Below are positions 30,447 to 49,795 of a DNA stretch of 64,000 nt, piece by piece. The translations under genes and the position numbers were made by a program. This DNA comes from Deltaproteobacteria bacterium. Its GTDB lineage: Bacteria; Myxococcota_A; UBA796; UBA2385. The stretch is taken from assembly GCA_016792625.1 (NCBI GenBank), contig JAEUKK010000044.1:34365-98364 (forward strand), written 5' to 3'. Within the stretch, counting starts at the first letter, position 1. Each line of letters begins with the position of its first letter. Below the pieces are notes generated by a model, which ran no database searches, was not told where the DNA came from, and was given only the letters and a program-made list of their open reading frames with translations.

Positions 30447-31129
30447 CGCAGCGGCACGCCGAGGCGCCGCGCGCGCTCGAGCATGCGGGTGGTGATCGTC
30501 GCCACGACCCAGATCGAGAGCGGCACCTCGATCAAGTTCGCGCAGTCGCCGACCAGGTCGAGCATGACCAACGCACCGTCGAGCGCAATCTCAGGGCGAA
30601 GGCTCATGCGCATATAGGCCTGCCCGGCCGCGGCGCTGATGACGTGCGCGCCCCACCACAACAAGATGCGGGTGCTCGTCGGATCGCCCGCAAAAGGCAC
30701 GTCGAAGCCGTCTTCGGGGGCGCTCGCCTGAAACAGCGCCTTGACCGACTGGTAGGGCCAAAACAGGCTCACGATGGGCAAGAAGAAGGACGCGACCGTC
30801 ATGCCTGGGCCGCGGGGCTGCGGGGCCTCGCGCAGGGTCTGGGCCGCCTTGACCGCCCGGTACACCCAGATGTACAGCAGAAGGCCGTTGGCCAGCAGCG
30901 CAAGGAGCATCGGGATCGAGACGAGGGCGTCGATGAGCGCCAGGGCGCTCTCGGGGTCGTCCTCTGCGCCGGCGAGGGTCAGCAGCATCGTGACCACGGT
31001 GAAGCCGACTTGGGCATAGCCGGTGCCCCGTATCCACGGGACCAAGCTGCCGATGGCCTTGAGCGCGTCGGCCGGCGGCGTCGCCTTGAGCTCGGCCTCG
31101 GGCGGGGCAAAGGGGTTGGGATCGCGCAT
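30443..31129 (-). CDS. DUF4328-like membrane protein (tandem paralogue B)
   Basis: Same architecture as paralogue A: NPFAPPEAEL, YIWVYRAVKAAQTLREAPQPRGPGMTV, C-terminal LERARRLGVPLR. Confidence 0.8.
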   Translation of the reverse strand: MRDPNPFAPPEAELKATPPADALKAIGSLVPWIRGTGYAQVGFTVVTMLLTLAGAEDDPESALALIDALVSIPMLLALLANGLLLYIWVYRAVKAAQTLREAPQPRGPGMTVASFFLPIVSLFWPYQSVKALFQASAPEDGFDVPFAGDPTSTRILLWWGAHVISAAAGQAYMRMSLRPEIALDGALVMLDLVGDCANLIEVPLSIWVVATITTRMLERARRLGVPLR

Positions 31130-31197: not shown

Positions 31198-32496
31198 TTA
31201 CCCTCTGCGTCGCCGCCACCCCACCACCAGCGCGAGCAGCCCCAGCAACCCGGCCCCGAGGCCCTGCCCGGGCCCGCTCGCGCAGCCCTCGCAGCGGCTC
31301 TTGGGCTCGTCCGTGCCTTCGAGATCAGCGATGTCGGCGCCCTCGTCCTCACAGAAGCGGCAGCCGCTGTCCTCGGGCGGCGGCGCTTCGGTGGTGACGG
31401 TGAAGGTCGCGTCTGCGGCCAGCACCCCGCCGAGGCGGTCGGGCAGGCCGGCGCGCACGGTCACGACCAGCTCGGCGTCGGTGGGCCAGGGCTCGACCGG
31501 CACGAGGTGCACGATGTGGCTATCGGTGCCGTAGAAGAGCCAGGTCTGCACCGCTAGCGGGCCCTCAGGCCCCTCGACGAGGAAGGCCTCGGGTACGATG
31601 TCGTCGCTGTGCAGGCTGCGGCGGAAGGTGATGGTGATGCGGCTGTCGGGGCTCTCGGGGTCGGTGCTCGGCACCCAGCCGCCCTCGGCGGGGTGGGTGT
31701 GGAGGATCACGTCCTCGGGCTGCAGATCGTGCAGGCGCCCCCAGACCTCGGCCCAGTAGAGCGCGATGACCTCGGCCTCACGGGCCGGGGTGCCGGGCAG
31801 GTCGGGGTCTTGCATGTGGCTGGTCGCCCAGGGGAAGCCCTCGCGGTGGCGCACGAGGCCCTCTTCTGCCTGGCTGCCGAGGCCGACGAGGCCGATGGCC
31901 AGCTCAAGCAGGTCTTGGCCCTCGTCGAGGGTGGCCTCATCGACGTCGATCCCGCGCTCCGCGAAGACCTCGACCAGGGTGGCCGCGGGCACGAAGCGCT
32001 CGGGCACCTCTTGGGGGCCGGTCAGCCAGGCCCACTCAAAGTCGGTGGCCTCGTCCATGCTGTCGCCGGCGGCCCAGCCGAGCGCGCCGTCGTAGCCCTG
32101 GCTGCGGTTCTGGTAGTGGGCGTCAAAGGTCTGGTCGGCCATGCCGTGGCTGGCCAGCCCGAGTAAGAAGGCGACGTGCTGGCGGGCCTCTTCGTCATCA
32201 TAGGGTGGGCCGTAGGTGCGGCGGATCCACGCGAGGTAGGCGCCTTGAAAGGGCTCCCAGTGGGCGGCCTCGCCGTAGGGGTGGCCGAGCGGGTAGCCGC
32301 CGTCGGGGAACATGGTGCCGTGCACGAGGGCGGCCTCGAGGGCCGGGTCGCGCACAAGGTCGCCCAGCGCGCCATCGGCGACGAGCTGCCGGGCCTCGCG
32401 GCTGATCCAGACGTGCGTGGTCTGGCCGTTGGCCCAGGCCGCGGGGCTGGCCAGGGCCACCAGCGCGGCGGCGAGGGGGCGGGCGGATGGGCGCAT
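31198..32496 (-). CDS. Secreted zinc-dependent phospholipase C-like protein with MYXO-CTERM sorting tail (enzyme family tentative)
   Basis: Signal peptide MRPSARPLAAALVALASPAAWA. His-rich metal-ligand-like motifs THVWIS, HGTMFPD, HWEPF and HGMADQTFDAHY. C-terminus CEGCASGPG...GLLGLLALVVGWRRRRG, i.e. Cys-containing motif, TM segment and Arg cluster. Confidence 0.75.
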   Translation of the reverse strand: MRPSARPLAAALVALASPAAWANGQTTHVWISREARQLVADGALGDLVRDPALEAALVHGTMFPDGGYPLGHPYGEAAHWEPFQGAYLAWIRRTYGPPYDDEEARQHVAFLLGLASHGMADQTFDAHYQNRSQGYDGALGWAAGDSMDEATDFEWAWLTGPQEVPERFVPAATLVEVFAERGIDVDEATLDEGQDLLELAIGLVGLGSQAEEGLVRHREGFPWATSHMQDPDLPGTPAREAEVIALYWAEVWGRLHDLQPEDVILHTHPAEGGWVPSTDPESPDSRITITFRRSLHSDDIVPEAFLVEGPEGPLAVQTWLFYGTDSHIVHLVPVEPWPTDAELVVTVRAGLPDRLGGVLAADATFTVTTEAPPPEDSGCRFCEDEGADIADLEGTDEPKSRCEGCASGPGQGLGAGLLGLLALVVGWRRRRG

Positions 32497-35159: not shown

Positions 35160-35843
35160 TCAAGCGGTCGCGTACGGCCGTCGCGGGGTGGGGCCTCGCG
35201 TGCCCTGAAGCAGGAAGGGCCAGCGATCCCCGTCATCTGCGGTGTTTGGAACGAGTTGGGCATCGCGGATGAGGTGCCGTGAGAACTCCGCGCTCCCCTC
35301 GAGCGGGGGGCTCGGAGGGCCGGTACGCGGGTTCCGCTGGTACGGCTCCTGACGGATGTGGCCCTCGAACCGGTCACCCTCACTCCCGTTCGCGAGGGTG
35401 CGAAAGTCGGCCCGCATCAAGGTCAGAAGGACGGGCTGTTGGCCCTCGTTGACGCGCAGCCAACCCTCAACGTTGCGCGTCGACCGCTCACGGAGGCCGG
35501 CAAGGCACTCCTTGGTCGTCGGGCTTGACCAAAATTCTTGTAGCGCACGCTCAAAGGACTCTTTCGACGTGTAGATCCGGTTGTACATCTGCACGCTCTC
35601 TTCGCTTGGGTAAGCAGCGATGAGTGAGATGCGTGTCTCGGCCTGCTTCCAAGGCCATACGAGCACTTCCCAGCCCCCAGCGACCGGGGTGCGGCGCACG
35701 GTAGCCTCGATTTCTCCGGGGTGGATGACTTCGATCCCCTGGGCCAGCTCTTTGAGCAAGTCGTAGTACTTCTTTGCATAGTCTGGCGGTTCGGCCTCGG
35801 CGTTAAGGTCGGCGTCCCGCTTCATGTACTCAAGCAAGCTCAT
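35160..35843 (-). CDS. Hypothetical protein (partner of the EEP enzyme; no motif recognised)
   Basis: 227-aa ORF in a visibly lower-GC stretch. Its ATG overlaps the stop of the upstream EEP gene (ATGA at 35840-35843). Confidence 0.7.
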   Translation of the reverse strand: MSLLEYMKRDADLNAEAEPPDYAKKYYDLLKELAQGIEVIHPGEIEATVRRTPVAGGWEVLVWPWKQAETRISLIAAYPSEESVQMYNRIYTSKESFERALQEFWSSPTTKECLAGLRERSTRNVEGWLRVNEGQQPVLLTLMRADFRTLANGSEGDRFEGHIRQEPYQRNPRTGPPSPPLEGSAEFSRHLIRDAQLVPNTADDGDRWPFLLQGTRGPTPRRPYATA

Positions 35844-37012
35844 GTGGTCTCCGTGAATCGATGAACAAGGGGGATGACGAGCTCGACGGGCAGGTGATCC
35901 GAGTAGGGCACCTCGGCAGCAAGAGAGCCGCCCAGCTTTGCCCGCTTTTTTGCTGAAGGCCTCGCCCTGGGGGCCCCGTCACCGCTAAAGCTTATGTGCC
36001 TGCTGAGGTCTGGCACCAGCCGCAATTTCCCTCCCTCCAGGAAGCGGTTTGCGGCGTCGGCGTTCAGAACGAACTGATCGTAAAGCTTCCATCGGTCGGC
36101 GCGTGTCGCTTCGCCCCAATAGAAGTAGGTCCCGGCAGGATGAGCCCCCACGGCACTTTGGCACAACGACCACGAGGGGTTGTAAAACGACGCCGGGATA
36201 CGGGATCGGTAGCCCCGGTTCAGCTCGCCGGCAGAGCGCGCTGCCCCCAGAAAGGCGACCCCGCTGAGCTCGTCAGACCACGGCTCGGCGTTCCAGTCGC
36301 CGCCGGCGATGACCAAGCTGACCCCTTGCTCTCTCTGGATGAGGTCCTTGATGGCCGCGCTCGTCACGAGCGCTCGCGTAAGGCGGTCCAGTCCCTCGGC
36401 GGCGGTGAGCTGGCTTGTGGCATGCACGTTTACAACGAGGACGAGCGTCGTTGATCCGATGTCAGGGTCGGTAATCTCCAGAGTCACCCAGCAGATTTCG
36501 CTGATTTTGGGGCGGCGGTCAAGCTTCTCTGGCGGCTCAGCTGACCTACGCAGGCTGATTGGCCACGATGCGTCGCCAGGCTTGCGGGTTCGAGCCAGGA
36601 TGACGGATCGACGCCCGTTCGCTCCTGGACCGTCGGTCGCCGCGCCAAGCTCCCAGCCGCGGGCTTCCAGAGCACCCGCCACTTTGGTGATGGACTTAAG
36701 GTCGGCCTCGACGGTTGTGCGGAAGCTCTCTCGGCCCTGCTCGGCGTCACGAGTCGGCCCAGCTGGGGCTCCCTCCTGGTTAGCCGCCGGCTCTGGTTCT
36801 GCGTCCGCAACCTCTGCCGCCGGCGCTGCATCCACCGGTTGCACCACTTTCGGTTCGGGCCACTCCTGGACCAGCACTGCGCCCCAAGGGCAAGTTGGTT
36901 CAAGGAGACGCGCTGCAAGAGCACCGAGCGCCTCGCGGTCGCGGTTCAAGTTCCAGGTCAAGATGGCCAGCGGGGTGGTGTTGTGGGGCGTCACCGGGGC
37001 GTTGTCTGGCAT
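35840..37012 (-). CDS. Endonuclease/exonuclease/phosphatase (EEP, DNase I-like) family protein
   Basis: N-terminal ILTWNLN, central VVNVHATS, GGDWNAEPW and C-terminal SDHLPVEL are the canonical EEP catalytic motifs in the right order. A ~100-aa acidic/Pro-rich insert is present. GC is lower than in the neighbours. Confidence 0.85.
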   Translation of the reverse strand: MPDNAPVTPHNTTPLAILTWNLNRDREALGALAARLLEPTCPWGAVLVQEWPEPKVVQPVDAAPAAEVADAEPEPAANQEGAPAGPTRDAEQGRESFRTTVEADLKSITKVAGALEARGWELGAATDGPGANGRRSVILARTRKPGDASWPISLRRSAEPPEKLDRRPKISEICWVTLEITDPDIGSTTLVLVVNVHATSQLTAAEGLDRLTRALVTSAAIKDLIQREQGVSLVIAGGDWNAEPWSDELSGVAFLGAARSAGELNRGYRSRIPASFYNPSWSLCQSAVGAHPAGTYFYWGEATRADRWKLYDQFVLNADAANRFLEGGKLRLVPDLSRHISFSGDGAPRARPSAKKRAKLGGSLAAEVPYSDHLPVELVIPLVHRFTETT

Positions 37013-37079: not shown

Positions 37080-37400
37080 TCCCCTCGCCCGTTCTGAGAA
37101 GCACGCCGGGCCCTCCGAGACCCCCCTCCCCCGTTCTGAGAAGCACGCTGGGCCCTCCGAGACCCCCCTCCCCCGTTCTGAGAAGCACGCCGGGCCCTCC
37201 CACACCCCCCTCGCCCGTTCTGAGAAGCACGCCGGGCCCTCCCACACCCCCCTCGCTCGTTCTGAGAAGCACGAGGGGACCTCCGAGACCCCCCTCGCCC
37301 GTTCTGAGAAGCACGAGGGGCCCTCCCACACCCCCCACGCCCGCTCTGAGAAGCACGCCGGGCCCTCCCACACCCCCACGCCCGCTCTGAGAAACGCCGG
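37080..37400. repeat. Tandem array: about 7.5 copies of a 42-bp unit with inverted-repeat core TTCT-G-AGAA
   Basis: The core GTTCTGAGAAGCAC (GCTCTGAGAAGCAC in unit 7) starts at 37091, 37133, 37175, 37217, 37259, 37301 and 37343, exactly 42 nt apart. A degenerate unit starts at 37384. The segment between cores switches between a few variants (..ccgagacccccctcccc / ..cccacacccccctcgcc). Confidence 0.95.
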
Positions 37401-37448
37401 CCCGCCCGCGCGTGGGCCGACCGGCGCCGGCGCGCGACCCGCGGCCGC

Positions 37449-38234
37449 TCAGCCGGGCTCGCCCTCGCCCGCGGGCTCGTCGCCCTCGGCGCCGCCGCGG
37501 GGGGTGCGGCGGCGGGTGGCCTCTTGCTCCTCCAGGATGGGCCGCAGCAGGCGCTGGGCCAGGGCCGGGTCGCCCTCGGACACCACGAGGGCGTGGGCGA
37601 CGAGGTGGCAGAGGCCGTCGTGGGCCTCGGCGGCGGCCGCGCGCAGGTCGGCGTAGCTCAGCTCGCCGGCCTCGCGGCGGGCGGCGGCGTAGCGGAGCTC
37701 GAAGCGGTCGATGGCCGCGAGCAGCGGGCGGAGGATCGGGCCGAGGCGGGCGGCCTCGAGGTCGGCGGCCCAGGCCTCGCTGCGCAGCAAGGCGGCGAGC
37801 GCGGCGTTGTGGGTGCGCTGCTCGGCGAAGGGCGCGCTGACGTGGCCGATGAGCCCGCCGGGGAAGGCCGCCTCGAGCAGCCGGTGGGCGAGCTGGCCCT
37901 CGGGCTCTTCGAGGCCATAGGCGCCGAGGTCGGCGACGAGCTTGCGGTGCAGGCGCCCCACATAGGCGTCGACCGCCGCGTCATCGGCGACGAGATCGGG
38001 GGTGCTGGCCAGCGCTTCGGTGACCGCGCGGGTGGCGCCCGCGCCGCGCTGCCGGTCCCAGCTCGCCTGCAGGCCGCGCAGCCGCTCGGCCACGCCCCGC
38101 TGGCGGGCGATGGCCGAGCGCAGGCCCTCAAGCCCGAGATCGGCGCTCGCGGCGGCGTCATCCATCATGTCAAGGGCGGTGAGCTGCCGCTCGGCGGACA
38201 GGCGGTGCAGCTTGACGAGCGCGGTGGCCAACAT
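37449..38234 (-). CDS. Hypothetical all-helical protein
   Basis: 3' part of track ORF 37449..38663. ATG at 38234 preceded by GGAGGGG. Codon bias is good and no motif was recognised. The upstream part of the ORF runs through simple repeats. Confidence 0.65.
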   Translation of the reverse strand: MLATALVKLHRLSAERQLTALDMMDDAAASADLGLEGLRSAIARQRGVAERLRGLQASWDRQRGAGATRAVTEALASTPDLVADDAAVDAYVGRLHRKLVADLGAYGLEEPEGQLAHRLLEAAFPGGLIGHVSAPFAEQRTHNAALAALLRSEAWAADLEAARLGPILRPLLAAIDRFELRYAAARREAGELSYADLRAAAAEAHDGLCHLVAHALVVSEGDPALAQRLLRPILEEQEATRRRTPRGGAEGDEPAGEGEPG

Positions 38235-38392
38235 GGTCCCCTCCAGGGGTGCGGGTGGGTCGGGCCCGACGGCGCCGCCGGGCTCCCCGGAGCCTACCGT
38301 GGGGCGCGCGGTGACACCCGGTGCCGACGCAGGGCCTCGGCGAGAGCCCGCGCGGGCACGGGCAGACGACCGGGGTGGTCCGGGGCGGGCGC

Positions 38393-38515
38393 TGGCGCGG
38401 TGCGGGCGGCGCGGGTGGCGCGGGCGGCGCGGGCGCCGCAGGGGCGCGGGCGGCGCGGGCGGCGCGGGATGCGCGGGATGCGCGGGATGCGCGGGCGCCG
38501 CAGGGGCGCGGCGCT
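38393..38515. repeat. 9-bp microsatellite GCGCGGG(C/T/A)(G/T), about 12 units, with an embedded 23-nt duplication
   Basis: gcgcgggtg gcgcgggcg gcgcgggcg ... gcgcgggat x3. The string gcgcgggcgccgcaggggcgcgg occurs twice. The array lies in the divergent intergenic region between 38234(-) and 38662(+). Confidence 0.85.
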
Positions 38516-38661
38516 CCGAGACCCAGGGGCGCGGCGCAGGGCCTTGGGCAGCGCGGTCTCGCGAAGCGGGCCGCGACCAGACCCGCGGGGTCGACGCTCT
38601 GGACCACCGGGGCGGTCCTGTGCCCCGCGTGCTAGAGCGGCACCTCTGGGGAGTGTGCCGC

Positions 38662-39876
38662 ATGCCGTTGCTGACCGCGCTGCACCTGAAGGACTACAAG
38701 GTCTTCGACCACGAGGTCACGCTGCCGCTGGCGCCCCTGACGGTGGTCATCGGGCCCAACAGCGCGGGCAAGAGCGCGGCGGTGCGCGCGCTCGCCATCC
38801 TTGAGCGCTCGCTGGCCGAAGAGAACCGCAGCGTGTGGCGCGCCGACGAGGCGGATGGGCCGGGCCGGGGCGCCTCCTTCGCCAGCTTCCCGCGGGATGG
38901 TGAACGGCCTCGGCGCTTTGAGGTGGGCCTGGGGTGGGCGGATGGGTCCGCCGACCGCTTCACGCTGGCCCAGACGCCTCCCTCTGTCTTCGGGTTCCTC
39001 AAGCAGGTCTCGACCAGCGAGGGCGTGGAGCGAAAGCACCGCGTCGACGACGACTGGGAGGATGAGCAGGGCGCGCCCATCGCGCCGCCGCGCTTTGAGG
39101 GGCTCTGCCCGGCAGAGGGCGAGCTCGCGCTGGCTCCGCTGCGGGAGCGGTTGCGCGGCCTGCGCGGCCGGGTGCAGTGGCTGAGCGGCTCGCGGGCCGC
39201 CGCGGCTTTTGAGGTGCAGCGGCGGCAGGTCGGGCCCCGCCTCGCCCCAGACGGCGGCGACGTCGCGCTGCGCCTCGTCGACGCCGGCGCCGGACCAGTG
39301 CGGGACGGGGTCAACCAGTTCCTGCGCGAGGCCTTCGGCCACGGCGCGATCGACGTCCACGACCTCAGCGCCGAGAAGGTCCAGCTGCGCGTGGGGCGCC
39401 TCCGGGGCACGCCCTTGCCCTTGGCCCTGGTGGGCGATGGTGTGGGCAAGTCGCTGCCGGTGGTCGTCGCCGCGCACCTGCTCCACCAGGCTCCGGCCGA
39501 GCGCTCAGGGGTGGTGCTCATCGAGGACCCAGAGGCGCACCTGCACGACGACGCGATCCGGGCACTGGCCCTGCACCTCGCGCAGCTCGCTGGCCGTTGG
39601 CAGCCCGGCCGGTCGCTGGTCTTGGAGACCCACTCGCGCACGCTCGTGCTCGCCGTCCAGCTCGCCGTCCGGCGGGGGCTGATCACCCCCGACCGGGTGG
39701 CGCTCGTGTGGGCCGGCGGCCGAGACGAGCCGGTCCTCGAGCGCATCGCGATAGACGCGAGTGGTGCGCCCCAGGGCACGCGCCTGCGGGGCGCCTTCGC
39801 GGAGGACGCCCGTCTGGCGGCAGAGATCGCTGGGCTCGACGCGGGGCGGGCCCCCGCCCCGACCGGGGCCGTCTGA
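38662..39876 (+). CDS. AAA_15/AAA_21-type (ABC-like, OLD/AriA-type) ATPase
   Basis: ATG at 38662, in frame with track ORF 38002..39876. Walker A VVIGPNSAGKSA, Walker B plus D-loop region VVLIEDPEAHLHDD, and ETHS (H-loop). Confidence 0.85.
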   Translation: MPLLTALHLKDYKVFDHEVTLPLAPLTVVIGPNSAGKSAAVRALAILERSLAEENRSVWRADEADGPGRGASFASFPRDGERPRRFEVGLGWADGSADRFTLAQTPPSVFGFLKQVSTSEGVERKHRVDDDWEDEQGAPIAPPRFEGLCPAEGELALAPLRERLRGLRGRVQWLSGSRAAAAFEVQRRQVGPRLAPDGGDVALRLVDAGAGPVRDGVNQFLREAFGHGAIDVHDLSAEKVQLRVGRLRGTPLPLALVGDGVGKSLPVVVAAHLLHQAPAERSGVVLIEDPEAHLHDDAIRALALHLAQLAGRWQPGRSLVLETHSRTLVLAVQLAVRRGLITPDRVALVWAGGRDEPVLERIAIDASGAPQGTRLRGAFAEDARLAAEIAGLDAGRAPAPTGAV

Positions 39877-39877
39877 G

Positions 39878-41035
39878 ATGCGGGTCGTCCTTGACCCCAC
39901 GGCCTTCTCCCAGCCGCTCGACCTGCTGGCGCTGCTCGCGGCCTGCGCCCGCGCGCAGCACGGCCTCGCCGCGCCCATCGCTGCCCGTGACGGATGGCTC
40001 GACACGCTGGGGGCCCTGGCTGGGCCGCTCGGCGCGCTCTTCGACGCGCTCGCCGCCCGCTACACGCTGCACCCCGCGACGGCCGCAACCATCACGGTGC
40101 GCTGCGCCGGCGGCTCAAACTGGCCCACCGCGGCGCTCGAGCCTGGCGACGCGGCCGCCCTGCTCGCCCAGCCCTTAGAGCTGCTGGTCGAGAACGAGCG
40201 CGCAGACTTTGCCTTTCTGCGGCGCATCGCGCACCCCCACCAGCGCGCCCAGCTCGACGCCGCCGTCGCCGCCGGCGCGCTGCGGGTGCGGCAAGGCGGG
40301 GGCATCACCGAGGTGAAGAAGAGCGTCGAGGCCCTCCGGCCCCAGGGCAGCGGTCCGGGCGAGGCGGATCGACGGGTGCGCCGCTTGCGGACGGTGGTCC
40401 TCTACGACCGCGACGCGCAGCTCACCGACCACCGCCTGCCGGGGCGAGATGCGACGGACCTCGATCAGCAGCTCGCCGACCCGGTGGCGAACGACCCCTG
40501 GCCGTGGTGGGGGCACCGCCTGCGTCGTCGGCACATCGAGTCCTACGTCCCTGTCGAGGTGCTCGAGGGCTGGCAGAAGGGTGACCAAGACACAGGGATT
40601 ACCCCACACACCACCCAGCAGCATCAGGCTGCCGCCGCGGTCATCGTGGCGCTTCGCAGCGCCAGCGGCGCGCAGCGAAGCATCGCGCATGCGCTCCCCA
40701 TGAAGGGCGGCCTTCTGAGCGTGGTGTCCAAGGCGCAGCGCAGCGCCCTCCCCCAACTTGCCCCGAATGCGGGCGCACAACAGCGGATGGCGGTCGAGAA
40801 CGCCGTGGCTCAGGCGCTCAATGGCGCGTGGCCTCCACCTTTCGATCAGCTCTCGCCGGCGCACCGGGCCGACCTGCTCGTCGGGTGGGGCCGCTGCTTG
40901 CAGGACGTCTTCTCAAGTGCCGCCCCCCGATGGGACCAGAGCTTCTGGGACGAGTTCGACCGGGACCTCGATCCCACCGACCCGGGCGACCTCGCAGCCC
41001 TCGCCCTCGTCGACACACTTCTGGAGCGGCTCTGA
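39878..41035 (+). CDS. DUF4435/TOPRIM-like (OLD-family nuclease-like, AriB/AbiLii-like) protein
   Basis: The ATG is 1 nt after the ATPase stop. LELLVENERADFAFL (TOPRIM Glu), VRQGGGITEVKK, VVLYDRDAQ (DxD) and HIESYVP (IENYL-like) occur in the order expected for split OLD-type TOPRIM proteins. The N-terminal ~100 aa and the C-terminal ~150 aa are unassigned. Confidence 0.65.
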   Translation: MRVVLDPTAFSQPLDLLALLAACARAQHGLAAPIAARDGWLDTLGALAGPLGALFDALAARYTLHPATAATITVRCAGGSNWPTAALEPGDAAALLAQPLELLVENERADFAFLRRIAHPHQRAQLDAAVAAGALRVRQGGGITEVKKSVEALRPQGSGPGEADRRVRRLRTVVLYDRDAQLTDHRLPGRDATDLDQQLADPVANDPWPWWGHRLRRRHIESYVPVEVLEGWQKGDQDTGITPHTTQQHQAAAAVIVALRSASGAQRSIAHALPMKGGLLSVVSKAQRSALPQLAPNAGAQQRMAVENAVAQALNGAWPPPFDQLSPAHRADLLVGWGRCLQDVFSSAAPRWDQSFWDEFDRDLDPTDPGDLAALALVDTLLERL

Positions 41036-41038
41036 CCC

Positions 41039-42730
41039 ATGGCTGACCTGTTCGACCAGCCCGCCATCGTCAAGCTCGGGGCGCTCCTCGACAACCTGCG
41101 CACGGGCTCGCTGCTCATCCCCGACTTCCAGCGCCGCTTTGTGTGGACGGACGAGCAGCGCCTCAACCTGCTCCGCTCGATCGCCGACGGCCTGCCCATC
41201 GGCTCGCTGCTCGTGTGGAGCAGCAACGACCCCGATGTGGCCACCGTCGACGCGCTTGGCCCCCACGCCCTCCCTGGCCGCGCTGCCCAGGGGCCATGGC
41301 TCTACCTCATCGACGGCCTGCAGCGGCTGACGACCCTCTTCTTGGCGTTGACGCCTCCCCCCGAGGAGCGCCATGCACCGAGCCGCACCCCACAAGAGCT
41401 GCTCCCGTGGGGCGATGATGGCGGGCCTTTTGATGACGACGCCGGGGCGGAGACCGCGGCCGCCGAGCCGCCGCGCCGCATCCTCATCGACCTCAACGCG
41501 ACGGCGGACCAGCGCTTCGTGCTCGAGGCGCGGCACACCCGCGTGAGCCCGACCCGCGTGCCGGCCGAGGTGCTGTTGAGCCGCCGCGCGCTCTACGCGG
41601 CGCAGAAGGCGCTCTGGGCCGAGTCCAAGAACCGCGAGGCGGACGCCATCGAGGCGCTCGCCGACCGCTTCCAAGACTACCAAGTGCCGGTGATGCGGCT
41701 GTTCACGAGCAACGTGGAGGACGTGGCCCGGGCCTTCGCGCGCATCAACTCGGGCGGCACCAAGATGACGGAGGCCGACCTCGCCGCGGCGCTCGCCTAC
41801 CGCCGCCTGCCGCTGGCGCAGGAGCTCGACGCCCTCGCGAGCAGCCTCCGCGAGGCGGGCTGGCACGACATCGACCGGGGCGCGCTGCTCGACCTGCTCA
41901 AGCTGCGCTTCGGCCTCGACGTGTACCGCAGCGAGCTGCCTGCGCTTCTGGAGCAGCTCGGCGCAGGACGAGGCGCGGGGGCAGATGCCCCGGAGCGGCG
42001 GGCGCGGTTCAATGTGATCATCGACGAACTCAGCCGCTCCGTGTGGTTGGCGGTGGCTGGTCTTCAACGGCTCGGCGTGCGTGGCAGCCACGCGCTGCCG
42101 TACCGCTTCCAGCTGCTGGTGCTCGCTGAGGCGCTGAGGCGCTACTCACCACCAGGGAGACTGGGCCACCTCAGGACGCAATACGCGATGGAGCGGTGGC
42201 TCCCAAGGGTGGAGCTCTGGTTCTGGCAAACCACCTTGCTTGAGCGGTTCACCGGCGCGACCGGACGCACCATCATGGTCGCCCTCGACGGGCTGGTGGG
42301 CGTGCTCACCGGCGAGTCCTCGCCATACTCCGGGCAGGCGGTCGTCCCGAGCCGGCGGCACCAACGCTTCGGCGCGGTGAGGACCCGCGCGCGGCTGCTC
42401 GCGCTGATCGCGGACGACGAGGTCGCGCAGGAGCACCTTGCTCTCGCCGGGCCTGACGCCATCGTTCGCATCGATCCGGCTGCGCCCAAAGAGCTGCCCG
42501 GCAGCTGGCTGGTGGCCACCCGGCACGACGTCCAGGAGGTCCGGGATGCGCTGTCTGCGGGCGCGCCCCCGAGCCGCACCAGCTTGGCCGCCCGGCAGCT
42601 GTCCCCGGCGGCCAAAGGGGCCCTCGCGCGGGGCGACGTCGCGGCCGCGGTCGAGGCCCAGTGCGCCCACATGGAGGAGATCGAGCGTCGGCTCATCCGC
42701 GAGGCGCAGCTGGAGCTGAGCGAAGGTTGA
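41039..42730 (+). CDS. DUF262 (ParB/Srx-fold, GmrSD/SspE N-domain-like) protein with unassigned ~300-aa C-terminal region
   Basis: The ATG is 3 nt after the upstream stop. LLIPDFQRRFVW, LIDGLQRLTTLF and FARINSGGTKMTEADL are the DUF262 signature blocks. I saw no DUF1524/HNH His-Me motif in the C-terminal half. Confidence 0.85.
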   Translation: MADLFDQPAIVKLGALLDNLRTGSLLIPDFQRRFVWTDEQRLNLLRSIADGLPIGSLLVWSSNDPDVATVDALGPHALPGRAAQGPWLYLIDGLQRLTTLFLALTPPPEERHAPSRTPQELLPWGDDGGPFDDDAGAETAAAEPPRRILIDLNATADQRFVLEARHTRVSPTRVPAEVLLSRRALYAAQKALWAESKNREADAIEALADRFQDYQVPVMRLFTSNVEDVARAFARINSGGTKMTEADLAAALAYRRLPLAQELDALASSLREAGWHDIDRGALLDLLKLRFGLDVYRSELPALLEQLGAGRGAGADAPERRARFNVIIDELSRSVWLAVAGLQRLGVRGSHALPYRFQLLVLAEALRRYSPPGRLGHLRTQYAMERWLPRVELWFWQTTLLERFTGATGRTIMVALDGLVGVLTGESSPYSGQAVVPSRRHQRFGAVRTRARLLALIADDEVAQEHLALAGPDAIVRIDPAAPKELPGSWLVATRHDVQEVRDALSAGAPPSRTSLAARQLSPAAKGALARGDVAAAVEAQCAHMEEIERRLIREAQLELSEG

Positions 42731-44100: not shown

Positions 44101-46651
44101 CGGCTGCCCAGGCCGCGGCCTCGTCTGCGAGCCCGGCCGCTGCGGCCAGCGCGGCCGCGCGCTCCAGCACCGCGGCGAGGCTGGGCCGGCTGTCTCGGGC
44201 GGTCGGCCAGCGGGCGCGCCAGGCCCGCGCGTGATCGACCGCAGCCCGCGCGGCGTCCAGGGCGGCGGGCAGGGCGCCCTGGGCCGCGGCGGCCTGCGCG
44301 GCGTGGTCGTGCAGGGTGATGCGGGCCTCGGCGGCGCGCAATGCGGGGGGCTGGCCGTCGAGGGGGGCGTCCAGCGCGGCGAGGCCGGCGGCCGCTGACC
44401 GTGCGGCCGCGGCCGGCGCGCCCAAGGCGAGGTCGGCCGCCGCTGCCACCGCGTGCGCCTCGGCCGAGAACAGCGCCGCCCGGGGCGCGGGGCCGCCGTT
44501 GGCCGCCCAGCGATCGACGAGGGTCAGCGCCTCGGCGGCGGCCTCTCGGGCCGGGGCAGCCTCGCCCGCGTCGAGCGAGAGCCGGGCGCGGAGCGTGAGG
44601 GCCTCGGCCAGATCAGCGATCAGCTCGGGCATCTCTGCGGTGAAGGCCTGCAGCTCGCGGTACAGGGCCAGCGCTTCGTCGGCGGCGGCGCGGGCCGCGG
44701 AGTGCTCGCCCTGCGCCTGGGCCGCCGCGGCGCGGCGCTCGAGGGCCAGGGCGAGGTCGCGGGTGGTGTCGGGCAGGGCGCCGCGGGTGGCCCGCAGGGC
44801 GCGGGCGTGGTCGACGGCTTCGCGGGCGGCCTCGCCTGCGGCGGCGGGCGCGGGGAGGAACAGCCCCACCTCGGCCTGCATGGCGCGTGCAAAGAGGCGC
44901 TCCCGCAGGCCATCGGGGCCGCTGTTCGTGGCGCGTTGCGGTCCCTCGCGCAGCTCGACCAGCTCGGCGGTGTGCGCAGCGGCCTCGGTGAGCTGACCCG
45001 CGTCGAGCTGCGCGGCACAGAGCTGCGCGAGGCTGGTCGCCAGGGCCCGCTGCGCCCTGGCCGGCCCGTGCGCCCCGCGGCAGAGCGCGACCCCCTCCGC
45101 TGCGGCGTTGACCGCCGTGGTCAGCGCGCCTTGCGCGAGCTCGGCCACGCTCTGCAGGTGGAGGGCGGTCGCGCAGCCCCAGCGCAGGTCAAGGTCGGCC
45201 CCGGCGCCCGGCCGGCCCATGGCAGCGCGGTAGACCTCGGCGGCCTCTCGGGCGGCGGCGCCGGCGCGCGCCCAGGCGTGCCCGGCGCGGTGCACCTCGG
45301 CCAAGCACCAGAGGGCCTCGCCCAGGGCCGCAGGACGGTCTGGGGCCTCGACTTGGCGCGCCAGCGCGACCGCCTGCTCGGCTGCCCGCTGCGCCTCGGT
45401 CAGCCCGCCCCGTGCGATCTGCGCGCGGCTGAGGGTGATCAGCGCGCCGCGCTCGGCCGCTGCGCGCGCCTGGCCCAGCGGGCCGCCCCCCTTCGCCTTC
45501 TGCGCGTACTTGACCGCCTCTTGCGCGGCGACCACCGCTGCGTCGAGCGCGCCGCGGCTGCGCTCGACCGCAGACAGCACGCTGAGGGCGAGCGCCAAGG
45601 GGCCGACCGCGCCGAGGACCGGGCCCACCCGCGCGAGGTAGGCGCGGCCCTCGTTGATCGCTGCGCCGAGGTGGCGTGCGGCCACGTCGAGAGCACCCTG
45701 TTGCGCAGCGATCTCGCCTTGCAGCTGGGACGTCAAGGCGCCCCGTCGCAGCGCCTCGTCCGGGTCGGGCACCCGCGCCGCCCAGCTCCGCGCCTCAGCG
45801 GCCGCAGCTGCCGCCGGGGCGGTCGCGCCGGCCCGGTGGTGCTGGTTGGCCAGCCGGATCAGGGCGGCCCAGGCCAAGGTCGGGGCGAGGGCCTCGCGCG
45901 CCTCGGCCGCGCTGCGCTCGAGCAGCGGCAGGGCCTCGTCCGCGCGCCCCTGAACCGTGAGGGCCTCGGCGGCCCGCAGCGCGGCCAGGGCCGCGTCGGC
46001 GGGGGCGCTCGCCTTGCGGAGGGCGTCGTCGGCGCGCGTGTAGGCCTCGTCGGCCTTGCCGGCCTCCAGCGCGCGCAGGGCGTCGTCGAGCAGCGCCCGG
46101 ACCGCCGCGCTGCGCCCGCCGCCGGCGGTGAACAGCCCCGCCTCGTGCGCCTGCAGGTGGGGGAGGCTCAGCCGCGGGGGCACCGGGGCCGCCTCATCGA
46201 TGGGCGCGGGGCGGGGCGCGAGCTCGATGAGCAGGCTGCGGGCCGACCAGAGGTCGGGCGCCGCGTCGCGGGCCGCGATCTTCAGCGCGGGCGGCCCGAC
46301 CAAGACGAGGCCGCCGGGGCTGTTGCGGCGCACCAGCTCGCGGCGCTCGTTGAGGCGCAGGTGGAGGGTGCTCCACAGGCGTGCGCCCTCGTCGCCGGCG
46401 GCGCGCAGGCGCGCCCAGCTCAGCCGCGGCGAGGCCTCGCCGAAGGACTCCAGCGCCGCGCGCAGTGAGGCCTCGTCGTCGATGGGCAGGTCGAGGAGCG
46501 CTTGGCCCTGTGCCGCCACCGCCGCGGCCGTGCGTTGCCGCAGCGCGGCCTCATCGGGGCCCGCTTCGACAAAGAGCCAGCCGAGCCAGAACTGGTCGGA
46601 CCAGTCGATCTGCTGGGCGAGCTCACGCCAGGCCGCGTCGAGGTCGGTCAC
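44081..46651 (-). CDS. Large Ala-rich TPR-repeat protein with a ~150-aa non-TPR N-domain
   Basis: 856-aa ORF. The GTG start overlaps the stop of the upstream ATPase (GTGA). Dozens of helix-turn-helix TPR-like units are present (e.g. ADEALPLLERSAAEAREAL, EALWCLAEVHRAGHAWARA). No catalytic motif was recognised. Confidence 0.8.
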   Translation of the reverse strand: MTDLDAAWRELAQQIDWSDQFWLGWLFVEAGPDEAALRQRTAAAVAAQGQALLDLPIDDEASLRAALESFGEASPRLSWARLRAAGDEGARLWSTLHLRLNERRELVRRNSPGGLVLVGPPALKIAARDAAPDLWSARSLLIELAPRPAPIDEAAPVPPRLSLPHLQAHEAGLFTAGGGRSAAVRALLDDALRALEAGKADEAYTRADDALRKASAPADAALAALRAAEALTVQGRADEALPLLERSAAEAREALAPTLAWAALIRLANQHHRAGATAPAAAAAAEARSWAARVPDPDEALRRGALTSQLQGEIAAQQGALDVAARHLGAAINEGRAYLARVGPVLGAVGPLALALSVLSAVERSRGALDAAVVAAQEAVKYAQKAKGGGPLGQARAAAERGALITLSRAQIARGGLTEAQRAAEQAVALARQVEAPDRPAALGEALWCLAEVHRAGHAWARAGAAAREAAEVYRAAMGRPGAGADLDLRWGCATALHLQSVAELAQGALTTAVNAAAEGVALCRGAHGPARAQRALATSLAQLCAAQLDAGQLTEAAAHTAELVELREGPQRATNSGPDGLRERLFARAMQAEVGLFLPAPAAAGEAAREAVDHARALRATRGALPDTTRDLALALERRAAAAQAQGEHSAARAAADEALALYRELQAFTAEMPELIADLAEALTLRARLSLDAGEAAPAREAAAEALTLVDRWAANGGPAPRAALFSAEAHAVAAAADLALGAPAAAARSAAAGLAALDAPLDGQPPALRAAEARITLHDHAAQAAAAQGALPAALDAARAAVDHARAWRARWPTARDSRPSLAAVLERAAALAAAAGLADEAAAWAAEAAAAR

Positions 46652-47994
46652 GCGCTCTGCGCCGGGGGCAGGGGGTTGCGCGCCACCATCGCTCTGGCCT
46701 CGTCAATGACCAGGGGGTGGGCGTTTACCCACTCCTTTCCGTTGCGATAGGTCATCACCAGCAGGTTGTCATAGAGCCGGGCGAGCTTGCCCAGGCGCGC
46801 GGTGTCGCTGAGGTCAATGGCGTGGGTGTCGGCGATGTTCACAAGCCAGCGCGCATCTTCGACCGTGATCGGCAGGTAACTGTTGCGCAGTTCGTCGATC
46901 ACGCGCTTGATGACGTCATCTTGAACCGGCAGCATGTCGCTCCGCGCGTGGCGCAGCGTCGACTGGATGAGCCGAAACAGGTCGCGCAGGTATCCCCCGC
47001 TGGCCAGCGAGAGCCTGTCGAGGGCGGCCCGGTCGGCGAAGAGCCTGTCCCACGCGGGCATGCGCCGCGCGACCAGCTCGGCGAGCGCGTCGAGGCCGGG
47101 TTGGAAGGGCTGCCCGTGGCGGTCCTTCACCTTCACGCAGGGGATCTGCTGGAAGCCGTGGAAGCGCGCGCCGATCGCCGGCGCGCGTACCTTGAGCCAA
47201 GGCGGGACCGTGTAGACGACATGGACGCCGGGCAAGTGCAGCTTCTCGGCGTGGATCTGAAAGAGGTTGACCGCGGAGGCCTCGACCTCTGTCGCATTGG
47301 CGAACGTCCCGGCCAGCTGTTCGAGGCTGTCGAACAGCACGACCAGCTGCCAGTCCGGGCCCCAGCCCGACCGCACCCGCCTGACACATTCTCTGATGAA
47401 TTCATGCACCTCTTTGGTCAGCGCGCCGAGGTGACCTGCCATCTGCGTTTGCAGGCGCTGCTTGAACGTGGGGTCGGCCTTCAGGTTGGCTTTGATGCTG
47501 ATGCCCATGTCTTTGACATTGGGAGACAGCCCAAGCTCGCTGAGGTCGACCTGGGTCTTGACCAAAAAATGAGCGATGCGGGTCCATACGCTCTCTGAGG
47601 AGACCCTCTCTGCGAGCCGGTCGCCCGTGGCGAGCTCGTCGTCGATGGCCCCGGCGGCGGCAAACAAGAAGTCGCTGACGTCGATGGGGGTGCTCAGGTT
47701 CAAGTAGCTCTGCGTGTCGATGTGCAGCACCACGAAGTGCGCGCCGTCTGCGGTCAGCTCGCGCTTGAGCCGCTTGAGCTCAGTGGTCTTTCCCGTCCCC
47801 CGAAACCCACTGAACAGCTGGTAGGACTCGCCTTTGGCCCAGCTGATGGTCGTCAACAGCTCGTCGACCGGATCGGCGGCGGACAGCTCGCGGCGCGAGT
47901 AAAACGGGAGGTACTCGGCGTCGCCTGCAGCGGTACCAATCGGGTCGAACTGGCGGTACATCGAGCGGAGAAAGTCGAGGTCGCCGGTCGTCAT
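46648..47994 (-). CDS. AAA+ ATPase, ORC/Cdc6-like or STAND-like P-loop NTPase
   Basis: ATG at 47994, in frame with track ORF 46648..48390. Walker A SGFRGTGKTTELKRL, Walker B QLVVLFDSLEQL, and a sensor-2-like SGGYLRDLFRLIQSTL resembling the GDAR.ALDLLR of Cdc6. GC is visibly lower than in the partner TPR gene. Confidence 0.85.
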   Translation of the reverse strand: MTTGDLDFLRSMYRQFDPIGTAAGDAEYLPFYSRRELSAADPVDELLTTISWAKGESYQLFSGFRGTGKTTELKRLKRELTADGAHFVVLHIDTQSYLNLSTPIDVSDFLFAAAGAIDDELATGDRLAERVSSESVWTRIAHFLVKTQVDLSELGLSPNVKDMGISIKANLKADPTFKQRLQTQMAGHLGALTKEVHEFIRECVRRVRSGWGPDWQLVVLFDSLEQLAGTFANATEVEASAVNLFQIHAEKLHLPGVHVVYTVPPWLKVRAPAIGARFHGFQQIPCVKVKDRHGQPFQPGLDALAELVARRMPAWDRLFADRAALDRLSLASGGYLRDLFRLIQSTLRHARSDMLPVQDDVIKRVIDELRNSYLPITVEDARWLVNIADTHAIDLSDTARLGKLARLYDNLLVMTYRNGKEWVNAHPLVIDEARAMVARNPLPPAQSA

Positions 47995-48024
47995 CGGTCG
48001 TCGGTCCTGGGTGTTTGCCGTGGG

Positions 48025-48050
48025 CAGCGACGGTTTGCGTATCGTCGCTG
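48025..48050. promoter_or_regulatory. Perfect 8-bp inverted repeat CAGCGACG-N10-CGTCGCTG, flanked by direct TGGGCA repeats (candidate operator or 5'-UTR hairpin of the ATPase-TPR operon)
   Basis: Read directly at 48021-48056. It lies 31-56 nt upstream of the ATPase start on the reverse strand. Confidence 0.3.
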
Positions 48051-48093
48051 TGGGCACGCGGCCACGGGGGCGGCTCCTAACCGCCGCGCCCGG

Positions 48094-48288
48094 CCCCCCG
48101 CGCCCGCCCGACCGCAGCGCGGGGCGCAGCCCCGGTCGCGCAGCGACCGAGCCGGGCGGCCGGCGCGCCCGCCGCAGGCGGCGCGTGGGCCGGGGCCCCG
48201 GCGAGCGCGGAGGGCGGGCTTGGGCGCCCAAGGCTCGGAGAGTGACCTGCTGCGGGTCGCTCTCGAGGTCAGCCGGCGGCGGCGGCCT
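48094..48288 (+). repeat. Right copy of the near-identical direct repeat
   Basis: See 43906-44100. Hairpin at 48134-48148. The right end contains the stop codon of the reverse-strand radical SAM gene. Confidence 0.95.
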
Positions 48289-49726
48289 GCTCGCGGCGCA
48301 GCAGGCCCGCGCCGAGGGTGGGCAGGTCGGGCAGCACGCTCCAGAGGCCGGCGGCCATCTGCATCGCGTCGATGGTGCGCACATGAACAAGCTGCCGCGC
48401 GATCATCTGGGGCCGCAGGTAGAACTGCGCGGTCGCCCGGCGCAGGGCCTCGAGCAGCTGCTTGGGGCTCTGGACCTCGGACACGATGACGATGCGCTCT
48501 TGGTCGGGGTTGAACGTGGTGTAGTTCTCCCAGTCGCGGCGGTTGAGCTTGCCGTCTTTGGCCATCTGGGCGTAGATCTCGCTGCCGGGGAAGGGCACGG
48601 TGATGGCGAACTTGGCGAAGTCGAGCTCGAGGCTGCAGGCGTAATCGATGGTCGCCTGGGTCTGGGCGGGGTTCTCGCCGGGCATGCCGATCATGAACAG
48701 GCCCACCGTCGTGATGCCCAGCTCGCGGCACCAGGCGATCGTCTGCCGTGAGCGGTCGGCGGTGTTGCGCTTGTGCACGGCCTTGAGCAGCGCGTCGTCG
48801 CCGCTCTCGATGCCGAAGACCAGGCGCCGGCAGCCGCTCTTCTTCATCCACACCAGCGACTCGCGGTCGACGCTGTCGGTGCGCAGCTCGCTGAGCCAGA
48901 CGAGCTTCTCGTGCAGCCCGCGGCGGATCATCTCGCGGGAGATCTCGATCGCCGCCTTGGGCCCCATGGGGAAGATGGGGTCCATGAACCCCACTTGGCG
49001 CACGCCGAACTGGCGCACATCGCGCTCGAGCTCGTCGCAGACGTTGCTCACGCTGCGCTTGCGGTAGGTCTTGCCCTGGTTCTCGAGCGCGCAGTAGCTG
49101 CAGCGAAAAGGGCAGCCCCGGCTGGCCGCCACCGCGACGATCGGCCGGGCCACGGTGCCCAGCGGCAGCAGGCTGTAGCGCTCATACGGCAGCAGCCCCC
49201 AGTCGGGGAAGGGGAAGGCGTCGAGGTTGGGGTCAAGCGCCCGCGGCGGGCCCTTCTCGAGGTTCTCGCCGTCGATCACGGTGACCCCGGCGATGCCCGC
49301 GCCGCTGCGCCCCGCCTGCCAGGCGGCGAGCAGCTCGACCGCCGCGTGCTCACCCTCGCCATGCACCGCCGCGTCGGCCAGACCGATGAGCTCGTCGGGG
49401 AAGAGGTCGGCGTGGATGTTCCCGGCGAAGATCTTCATGCCCGGGTACTGCGCGCGCAGGCGCTTGAGCAGGCCGTAGACCGCCGTGGCCACGGGCGTGA
49501 GGATCGAGACGCCAAAAGCGTGCGGCCGGAAGCGGTCGATGAGCGCGATCACCGCCTCGTCGCCGCCGCGCAGAGCGAAGTCGTCCCAGACCTGGACCTC
49601 GTGGCCAGCCTCTTGCAAGAAAGTGGCCACGTACGCGATGCCCACGCAGGGCATGGCCTCGAGCAGCGGGGCGAAGCGCCCAAACTGCTCGGCCTTGATG
49701 CTGGGGTTCAGCAGGACGACGCGCAT
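48269..49726 (-). CDS. B12-binding-domain radical SAM enzyme
   Basis: ATG at 49726, in frame with track ORF 48269..51184. N-terminal Rossmann-like B12-binding domain (MRVVLLNPS...VGIAYVATFLQEAGHEVQVWDD). CX3CX2C motif GCPFRCSYC, and a GIESG box. Confidence 0.9.
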   Translation of the reverse strand: MRVVLLNPSIKAEQFGRFAPLLEAMPCVGIAYVATFLQEAGHEVQVWDDFALRGGDEAVIALIDRFRPHAFGVSILTPVATAVYGLLKRLRAQYPGMKIFAGNIHADLFPDELIGLADAAVHGEGEHAAVELLAAWQAGRSGAGIAGVTVIDGENLEKGPPRALDPNLDAFPFPDWGLLPYERYSLLPLGTVARPIVAVAASRGCPFRCSYCALENQGKTYRKRSVSNVCDELERDVRQFGVRQVGFMDPIFPMGPKAAIEISREMIRRGLHEKLVWLSELRTDSVDRESLVWMKKSGCRRLVFGIESGDDALLKAVHKRNTADRSRQTIAWCRELGITTVGLFMIGMPGENPAQTQATIDYACSLELDFAKFAITVPFPGSEIYAQMAKDGKLNRRDWENYTTFNPDQERIVIVSEVQSPKQLLEALRRATAQFYLRPQMIARQLVHVRTIDAMQMAAGLWSVLPDLPTLGAGLLRREQAAAAG

Positions 49727-49795
49727 CTTCGGCTCCGTCGGCCACCGCTCGGGCGCCGTGACAGTCAGCGACGTCGAGAGGATATCCCAGCGCCC

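Follow-up and report, generated by a model that had tools for sequence, protein, structure and literature searches.

Do three closely packed genes in the genome of a Deltaproteobacteria bacterium make up a defence system that has so far escaped description, or are they a copy of one already on record? The genes lie on contig JAEUKK010000044.1 (assembly GCA_016792625.1), within a stretch of 64,000 nucleotides that was analysed as a whole and is referred to here as the window; positions are counted from its first letter. They encode an ATP-binding cassette (ABC) ATPase, a predicted Toprim-like protein and a DUF262 protein. An earlier note, made from the letters of the window alone, had described them as a PARIS/AbiL-like pair extended by a third gene, and had known of no described system that combines the three. 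The idea of an undescribed system did not survive: the trio is a new, divergent, stand-alone member of a catalogued candidate, namely PDC-M55 of the PADLOC collection, in which the genes stand in the same order, and is not an undescribed system. It also comes partly close to the Menshen system (NsnABC).

The trio as a copy of PDC-M55

The first gene of the trio (38662-39876) encodes the ABC-type ATPase, of 404 residues; the second (39878-41035) encodes the predicted Toprim-like protein, of 385 residues; and the third (41039-42730) encodes a GmrSD/BrxU-like DUF262 protein of 563 residues. All three are on the plus strand, and their products are denoted A, B and C, respectively. The tight packing of these open reading frames (ORFs) is exactly as it had been claimed, in letters as well as in position, with 1 nt between genes 1 and 2 (TGAgATG, 39874-39880) and 3 nt between genes 2 and 3 (TGAcccATG, 41033-41041). 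The spacing stays tight in nine independent related loci, at -4 to +9 nt. The proposal that the three genes form one operon is supported as well. The G+C content at third codon positions (GC3) is 0.86-0.90 in the trio, in a window of about 74% G+C, and full-length homologues exist for each gene; that is, GC3 values typical of coding sequence here, together with full-length relatives, mark all three as real genes.

The assignment to PDC-M55 is based on matches to PADLOC models, assessed by their E-values, and on gene order. All three proteins match the corresponding models, i.e., PDC-M55A (4.1e-28), PDC-M55B (5.2e-13) and PDC-M55C (7.6e-44), and the genes follow one another on one strand in the order A>>B>>C given for the candidate. 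We are therefore confident that the trio is a PDC-M55-type cassette. The candidate originates from the study of Payne et al., 'New antiviral defences are genetically embedded within prokaryotic immune systems', in which 145 PDCs were derived from genes that lie inside BREX, DISARM and type I restriction-modification systems, and in which PDCs are stated to be untested candidates (Payne et al. 2024, bioRxiv 10.1101/2024.01.29.577857). The supplement of that preprint lists the cassette CAS_00179, composed of FAM_00005>>FAM_02935>>FAM_00004, with a count of 47 and the remark 'Assign as candidate PDC-M55'; in the accessible part of this source, the cassette is given as family codes, without domain analysis or mechanism (bioRxiv 10.1101/2024.01.29.577857). 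Our literature search found no trio of DUF262 protein, ABC ATPase and Toprim protein described beyond Menshen, PARIS and the PDC catalogue.

In the window copy as in the catalogue entry, the gene for an ABC ATPase comes first, that for a hypothetical protein second and that for a GmrSD-like protein third, and every model of the entry matches. The window copy differs in being divergent, residues 90-235 of protein B being matched only to positions 88-215 of the 315 in its model. It differs also in its setting: the catalogue family was found by its embedding in defence systems, whereas the window copy is neither in nor beside a recognised one.

Motifs and predicted folds of the three proteins

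Protein A had been read as an AAA_15/AAA_21 ABC ATPase, of the sort found together with OLD-type nucleases, and both Pfam and PADLOC bear this out. The Pfam matches are to AAA_21 (4e-17) and AAA_15 (9e-13). Weak additional matches are to SMC_N and RecF; Pfam detects no DUF3696 tail. The two best PADLOC matches are to NsnB, the ATPase of Menshen (2e-28), and to PDC-M55A (residues 4-384 against positions 3-404 of the 421 in the model), and the others, namely AriA (3e-17, C-terminal half only), HEC-01A, GajA and Old, lie far behind. Among PDB sequences, protein A matches the N-terminus of the OLD nuclease 6p74. Its Walker A motif is GPNSAGKS (G31-x-N-x-x-G-K37-S38), R168 lies in the Q-loop region, and G258-x-G260 replaces the signature motif; the Walker B segment E288-D-P-E..H293-L-H295 and the motif E322-T-H-S325 follow. 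The Walker A and ETHS motifs had thus been named correctly, but the Walker B segment reads IEDPEAHLH, i.e., E-D and not the D-E of the earlier note. In an alignment of 8 sequences (protein A and seven orthologues), the Walker A pattern GxNxxGKS, R168, G258-x-G260, E288, H293, H295 and ETHS 322-325 are all invariant, the residue after E288 is either D or Q, and a C-terminal helix of the pattern AFxED..LAAE(L/I)AGL is conserved. In the NsnB proteins of Menshen, Arg stands in the Q-loop, GxG in place of SGG and EN in place of the DE dyad (PMC12065111); the deviations of protein A, i.e., an Arg in the Q-loop region, GxG and a Walker B motif that starts with Glu, are of the same kind.

Protein B is very probably a Toprim-fold two-metal nuclease. 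This assignment is made because of its invariant acidic residues, the predicted order of its beta-alpha-beta core, a weak Foldseek match to AriB and weak matches to OLD nucleases. Relatives were collected by a word-indexed search, which gave 7, and with a profile run against 1.84 billion cluster representatives, which gave 815 clusters at E<=1e-3; the conservation figures refer to an alignment of 136 of these 815 clusters. Only E105, D177, D179 and E221 are invariant in this alignment, and D110, G141, G142, R171, R217, R218, Y223, K276 and G278 are conserved in at least 90% of the sequences. The motifs that had been quoted for this protein are all present, namely E105, GGG140-142, D177-x-D179 and HIESY219-223. 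In the AlphaFold2 model, with a predicted local distance difference test score (pLDDT) of 89.7, a small alpha/beta N-terminal domain (residues 1 to about 88) precedes a Toprim-like core (about 98-235) and a helical C-terminal domain (about 247-384), the latter carrying a conserved MKxGL motif with K276 and G278. The strand 100-104 leads to E105, the strand 135-139 to the GGG motif, the strand 172-176 to D177-x-D179 and the strand 211-214 to E221; in this predicted structure the placement of the residues is the Toprim arrangement, in which the first strand of a beta-alpha-beta core is followed by a Glu and the third by DxD. From its secondary structure, we suspect that the N-terminal domain may be inPIN-like.

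The best match of this model among PDB structures, as found by Foldseek, is chain 8ux9_A of the PARIS complex (E 0.015, probability 0.66, TM about 0.2), which, judged from its length of 306 residues, is taken to be AriB; the C-terminal region of OLD appears at ranks 4 and 19 of the same list (E 0.25-0.9). Five acidic residues are described for AriB, namely E26, D30, D88, E90 and E122 (PMC11464382), and the set E105/D110/D177/D179/E221 of protein B parallels them. The motifs of protein B also line up one by one with VEGKTE, DGKG, ADCD and DIEAVY of the P2 Old protein, whose sequence was read directly. A Foldseek comparison with viral structures gave nothing meaningful.

Sequence profiles gave a different picture for this protein. 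The sole PADLOC match of protein B is to PDC-M55B, a model that 135 of the 136 family members match (best 2e-40). Pfam gave nothing for protein B even at E<=1, and NCBIfam one irrelevant sub-threshold match (E 0.005). Across the 136 relatives, Pfam yielded 4 weak matches to RloB (best E 0.018) and none to DUF4435; Pfam searches with the family consensus, and with the Toprim and N-terminal segments on their own, were without relevant matches; PADLOC models searched at E<=10 showed no trend towards AriB, HEC-01B, Old or GajA; and no Toprim protein was retrieved when PDB sequences were searched with profiles of the 8- and 136-sequence alignments. The description of protein B as DUF4435/TOPRIM is thus only partly supported: residues, predicted fold order and weak Foldseek matches speak for the Toprim part, but no hidden Markov model (HMM) of either DUF4435 or Toprim matches, and protein B falls outside the DUF4435 family in its present definition.

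Protein C is a DUF262 protein, as had been claimed: Pfam matches GmrSD_N (DUF262) at residues 14-252 (2e-25), and the quoted motifs DFQRRFVW, DGLQR and FARINSGGTKMTEADL are present. Its PADLOC matches are to PDC-M55C, HEC-05 (BrxU-like; 6e-17) and NsnA (1e-11, N-terminus only). The DUF262 motifs Q31-R32..W36, D92-G-L-Q95-R96 and F233-x-R-x-N237..G240 are intact in protein C and invariant or nearly so (about 100%) in its family. The AlphaFold2 model (pLDDT 85.5) matches BrxU (7p9k_A) over its whole length in Foldseek (E 9.5e-10, probability 1.0), and the DUF262 part resembles BrxU by sequence too; further Foldseek matches are to the DUF262 protein of the DndBCDE-DndI system (9jfl, 9e-4) and to ParB/Noc proteins. 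Besides the DUF262 domain, protein C includes a disordered insert (residues 111-142), a helical middle region (about 255-425) and a degenerate DUF1524/HNH remnant (about 445-555). The roughly 300 C-terminal residues that had been left unassigned are accordingly a GmrSD/BrxU-type helical region followed by a degenerate DUF1524 domain.

That protein C lacks a working HNH half had also been proposed, and the proposal stands. Pfam finds no GmrSD_C in it, and in an alignment with the distant, HNH-bearing relatives P0181-P0183 its residues V476-R477-I-D-P480 stand at the HNH motif H-H-I-(F/Y)-P...N, with Arg in place of the catalytic His, a six-residue deletion and S489 at the position of the Asn; P0182 itself gives a weak match to GmrSD_C. 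Judged from this alignment, the HNH domain of the window copy is dead. Of 81 distinct sequences in the family, 26 have His and 22 have Arg at the His position, the remainder having other residues, and 72 have Asn at the Asn position. The idea that the family is uniformly nuclease-dead was rejected, since 26 of the 81 keep the His; the statement is limited to the window copy and most clades. Across the family, the HNH nuclease domain is under no consistent selection, and conservation of the DUF262 site is strict.

Linkage, distribution and surroundings

Relatives of protein C were sought in 185,579 species genomes, and 137 were confirmed, a lower bound, because the scan was seeded on one peptide pattern; a first genome scan with peptide seeds from protein B, whose patterns were too strict, gave nothing. 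Linkage was counted in 80 loci of species-representative genomes, in which six-frame ORFs were searched with HMMs of the three families. The complete series A, B, C on one strand is present in 72 of these, so that the co-occurrence of the three genes is borne out; in a further 5 the locus is cut by a contig end and B is still present, 1 is degraded (L028), and in 2 (L020 and L073) C stands alone. In these last two loci the protein C-like gene has no adjoining ATPase and Toprim genes, and in L020 its product is also without the HNH His.

The trio is found in Myxococcota (Nannocystaceae, Kofleriaceae, Archangium, Chondromyces, Pyxidicoccus), in many Actinomycetota, in Gammaproteobacteria, among them those of the Thiomargarita and Beggiatoa type, in Betaproteobacteria, in Verrucomicrobiota and Bacteroidota, and in Acidobacteriota and Thermoanaerobaculia. 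This distribution is patchy, and the flanking genes differ in every locus examined, which speaks against a universally syntenic core, a possibility that the earlier note had raised against its own reading. Some copies are on plasmids. The mobilizable plasmid pYEE5 of Paracoccus yeei carries an intact trio beside a recombinase and a RelE/ParE pair, and on a conjugative IncFII plasmid of Leclercia adecarboxylata (L011:4250-5968) gene B is split by IS1, with a tyrosine recombinase just upstream. Both were found through protein C, a tblastn search of plasmids with protein B having given no match.

Other copies lie within a known defence system. When 69 large flanking proteins from 24 loci and the window were scanned, the PglW and PglX models matched four each, and in scans protein by protein, Solwaraspora (L049) and Micromonospora (L062) both showed A, B and C preceded by PglW and followed by PglX. 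By tblastn, the trio stands between pglW and pglX, i.e., in BREX type 2 (Pgl), in 11 Micromonosporaceae-type loci, on the same strand in 4 (L047, L049, L058, L062) and on the opposite strand in 7 (L063, L064, L069, L074, L075, L076, L089). In L002, a relative with 41-44% identity to the window proteins, a PglX-like start follows directly after the trio. The 'guilt by embedding' from which the catalogue arose is thereby reproduced independently, for BREX type 2 (Pgl). An association with defence genes is seen in these 11 loci but not in the window, whose five scanned neighbours have no defence match.

Several loci show further peculiarities. The cassette is present twice in Chondromyces apiculatus DSM 436 (L007/L048:7014-8778 and L032), in one case with a split ATPase gene (a frameshift or a pseudogene). 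Two complete cassettes (L017 and L019) are found in one metagenome-assembled genome (MAG) of Thiomargarita, and one complete and one degraded cassette (L026 and L028) in one Myxococcota MAG. A protein C-like ORF of about 1750 residues in a Magnetococcales MAG (L084:9947-15205) suggests a fusion with a large C-terminal extension. In another MAG (L005:2974-4612), a second AAA_21/AAA_15 ATPase gene with a 162-residue partner lies about 3 kb upstream of the trio and may be another ATPase-based system.

The surroundings of the trio in the window are of a different character from the accessory stretch, with nuclease-like and NTPase genes, that had been described. The neighbours encode an M23 peptidase (28631-29350) and a PLC-like/Big_5 protein (31198-32496), which adjoin two tandem DUF4328 genes of the minus strand (29733-31129), and further an acyl-CoA dehydrogenase, a pirin, three proteins without assignment and an 856-residue protein also without assignment. 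A P-loop NTPase of 580 residues overlaps the start of a gene for a B12-binding radical-SAM enzyme of 971 residues on the minus strand (46648-51184 together); the Pfam matches of this NTPase are sub-threshold only, of the AAA_22/AAA_16 type, and it has no PADLOC match. The composition of the trio does not stand out in the window. A defence-island context for the window was rejected, because the neighbours are ordinary and five of them were scanned without a PADLOC match; the window copy is a stand-alone chromosomal cassette.

Upstream of gene 1 lies a divergent intergenic region of about 425 bp (38237-38661), which presumably holds the promoter; no sigma-70 consensus was found in the region upstream of the gene, which says little at 74% GC. 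At 38383-38511 this region carries a tandem array of about 14 copies of a 9-nt repeat of the GGGCGGCGC type, which can also be read as a 62-nt unit present twice. A minus-strand ORF (37449-38663) extends across it on paper; from its translation, its true start is probably an ATG near 38234, and because of this the repeat stretch is considered non-coding. A second array, of a 42-nt unit (7.9 copies, 91% identity, 37081-37407), lies between the minus-strand genes at 35840-37012 and about 37449-38236; it is without spacers and so not CRISPR-like.

Proposed working and relation to known systems

What, then, might the trio do? That it is a defence system we consider likely. Our best explanation, towards which we lean on balance, is that the locus is a divergent, stand-alone copy of PDC-M55, most likely acting against phages or mobile DNA. 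A specific mechanism, with the DUF262 protein as sensor, the ABC ATPase as the link and the Toprim protein as effector, can be put forward only tentatively, and we would not count on its being correct in this form. Its models are Menshen, for which a sensor-transducer-effector scheme has been proposed (PMC12065111), and PARIS, whose logic has been shown by experiment: there, an ABC ATPase scaffold holds the Toprim nuclease in check until it is set free by a trigger (PMC11464382). The parts of the trio correspond to both. Protein C, having lost its own nuclease, would use its DUF262 site and GmrSD-like body to bind nucleotide and DNA, and would sense foreign, perhaps modified, DNA, as BrxU and GmrSD do. 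Protein A would hold or gate protein B, coupling sensing to the binding or hydrolysis of ATP. Protein B, once released or activated, would cut DNA, or else RNA, such as tRNA as in PARIS. The phage would be stopped either directly, by restriction, or through abortion of the infected cell. We infer the defence activity, the sensing roles, the complex of A with B and the nuclease substrate by analogy with these systems. Equally possible is an arrangement in which sensing would fall to the ATPase, as it does to AriA, and in which protein C would only target the complex to DNA.

A variant of our best explanation, with a different target and outcome, is a modification-dependent, type IV-like restriction system that would cut incoming DNA directly, in which the Toprim protein would replace the lost HNH nuclease and the ATPase would be a motor or clamp, with no abortive infection. 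It draws on the match of protein C to BrxU over the whole fold and, in the DUF262 part, by sequence, on the dead HNH domain of the window copy, which implies that another nuclease is needed, and on the fact that BrxU is BREX-associated as the cassette is embedded in BREX type 2. Yet AriB, the closest structural relative of protein B, cuts tRNA and acts by abortive infection (PMC11464382), the effectors of Menshen are predicted to be mostly RNases (PMC12065111), and no result indicates the nuclease substrate; we regard this variant as unlikely.

Less probable still is a toxin-antitoxin or addiction module, or a weapon of mobile elements in competition with one another, which would stabilise plasmids or islands rather than act against phage, with the Toprim protein as toxin and the ATPase, the DUF262 protein or both as its inhibitor. 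Such a role would suit the plasmid copy beside a recombinase and a RelE/ParE pair, the annotation of AAA_21 as an 'AbiEii toxin, type IV TA' family, and the movement of the cassette between unrelated contexts. It fits poorly with the chromosomal location of most copies, of which 11 are inside BREX type 2 operons, and the nearest relatives of all three components are found in phage-defence systems; besides, toxin-antitoxin and abortive-infection functions are not mutually exclusive. A housekeeping role in repair or segregation, with a RecF/RecN-like ATPase, a RecR-like Toprim protein and a ParB-like protein, we consider very improbable. ParB-fold, SMC/RecF-like ATPase and Toprim domains do all occur in chromosome maintenance proteins, the weak SMC_N and RecF matches of protein A and the ParB/Noc matches of protein C are in keeping with it, and the window neighbours are ordinary metabolic genes. 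Opposed to this are the patchy distribution with different flanks (at least 137 relatives of protein C in 185,579 species genomes), the existence of disrupted copies (an IS1 insertion, a frameshift, a degraded locus) and the embedding of the cassette in BREX.

Several observations weigh against our own explanation, i.e., that of a PDC-M55 defence cassette with a sensor, an ATPase and a Toprim effector. The literature search found no paper naming PDC-M55 and no experimental test of it. The five nearest large neighbours in the window, scanned by PADLOC, gave no match to a defence model, and mobile-element signs are wanting, with no tRNA in the window, no integrase match among the scanned neighbours and no att-like flanking repeats. 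No sequence profile places protein B in any Toprim family, the match of its predicted structure to the PARIS chain is weak, and an hhalign comparison of its family with the P2 Old C-terminus, as a single sequence, gave no signal; a homologue search made to deepen the P2 Old alignment gave 4 matches. About a third of the family of protein C keep the HNH His, and in these the protein may still cut DNA, so the division of labour between sensor and effector may differ between clades. Finally, the interactions among A, B and C are assumed by analogy.

For the window, the result is an ordinary one: a further copy of a candidate already in the catalogue, in surroundings that are not those of defence. 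For PDC-M55, a kind that is catalogued but uncharacterised and leaves room for discovery at the bench, the analysis adds to the catalogue entry domain assignments for the three proteins, key residues and 72 complete loci from diverse phyla, and natural 'embedded' and 'solo' versions of the cassette can now be compared. If it were shown to work, PDC-M55 would be a validated three-component system in which a GmrSD/BrxU scaffold has turned sensor and the cutting has passed to an ATPase-gated Toprim nuclease, and it would offer a handle on what BREX type 2 (Pgl) alone cannot stop. A bolder version, which we hold to be doubtful, is that PDC-M55 is a working defence system that connects type IV restriction (GmrSD/BrxU) with Menshen and PARIS as a missing link. 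In it, a pure sensor of foreign (e.g. hypermodified) DNA, derived from BrxU, would signal through an NsnB-like ATPase to a Toprim nuclease of a family without a Pfam model, and the repeated insertion between pglW and pglX would provide a second line against phages whose modified DNA or anti-BREX proteins let them get past BREX type 2.

How does the trio compare with the known systems? In Menshen (NsnA-NsnB-NsnC; Millman et al. 2022; Li et al. NAR 2025, PMC12065111) the roles are the same: a ParB-fold protein with DUF262 but no working nuclease, an ABC ATPase of the AAA_15 type, and an effector that is a protein of its own. Some of its NsnC effectors are Toprim-fold proteins (RloB, DUF4276) (PMC12065111), and it is RloB to which 4 members of the protein B family have their weak matches. 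However, the order NsnA-NsnB-NsnC stands against the order ATPase-effector-DUF262 here, seen in the 72 complete loci, a cyclic permutation that keeps the ATPase next to, and ahead of, the effector. Protein C is BrxU-sized, with a degenerate DUF1524 remnant, and is closer to BrxU/HEC-05 than to NsnA, the NsnA match being confined to its N-terminus; protein A matches the NsnB model but has no detected DUF3696; and no NsnC model matches protein B. With its B-C-A order in Menshen terms, the absence of an NsnC match and a BrxU-like protein C, the trio is not Menshen as defined.

PARIS (AriA/AriB) and AbiL, of OLD-family class 4, likewise encode the Toprim nuclease in a gene of its own, downstream of that for the ABC ATPase, and the logic of a PARIS/AbiL-like pair is plausible for the trio; a DUF4435 effector and a two-gene design, which characterise PARIS/AbiL, are not found. 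Protein A is closer to NsnB than to AriA, protein B has an extra N-terminal domain, and a third, obligatory DUF262 gene is present. In PARIS the trigger is Ocr and the substrate tRNA-Lys. The trio, without DUF4435 and with three genes, is not PARIS/AbiL.

The type IV restriction enzymes GmrSD, BrxU and SspE share with protein C the whole GmrSD-like fold and the QR..W, DGxQR and FxxxN motifs, and an association with BREX is common to BrxU (bioRxiv 10.1101/2024.01.29.577857) and to the actinobacterial copies of the cassette. They differ in that the window protein has the HNH His changed to Arg and the Asn to Ser, the (D/H)-H-I-x-P motif being lost, and in that the gene for a protein of this type is practically always accompanied by those for the ATPase and the Toprim protein; with its HNH domain dead, the trio is not a GmrSD enzyme. 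Its working logic lies between PARIS/AbiL, Menshen and GmrSD.

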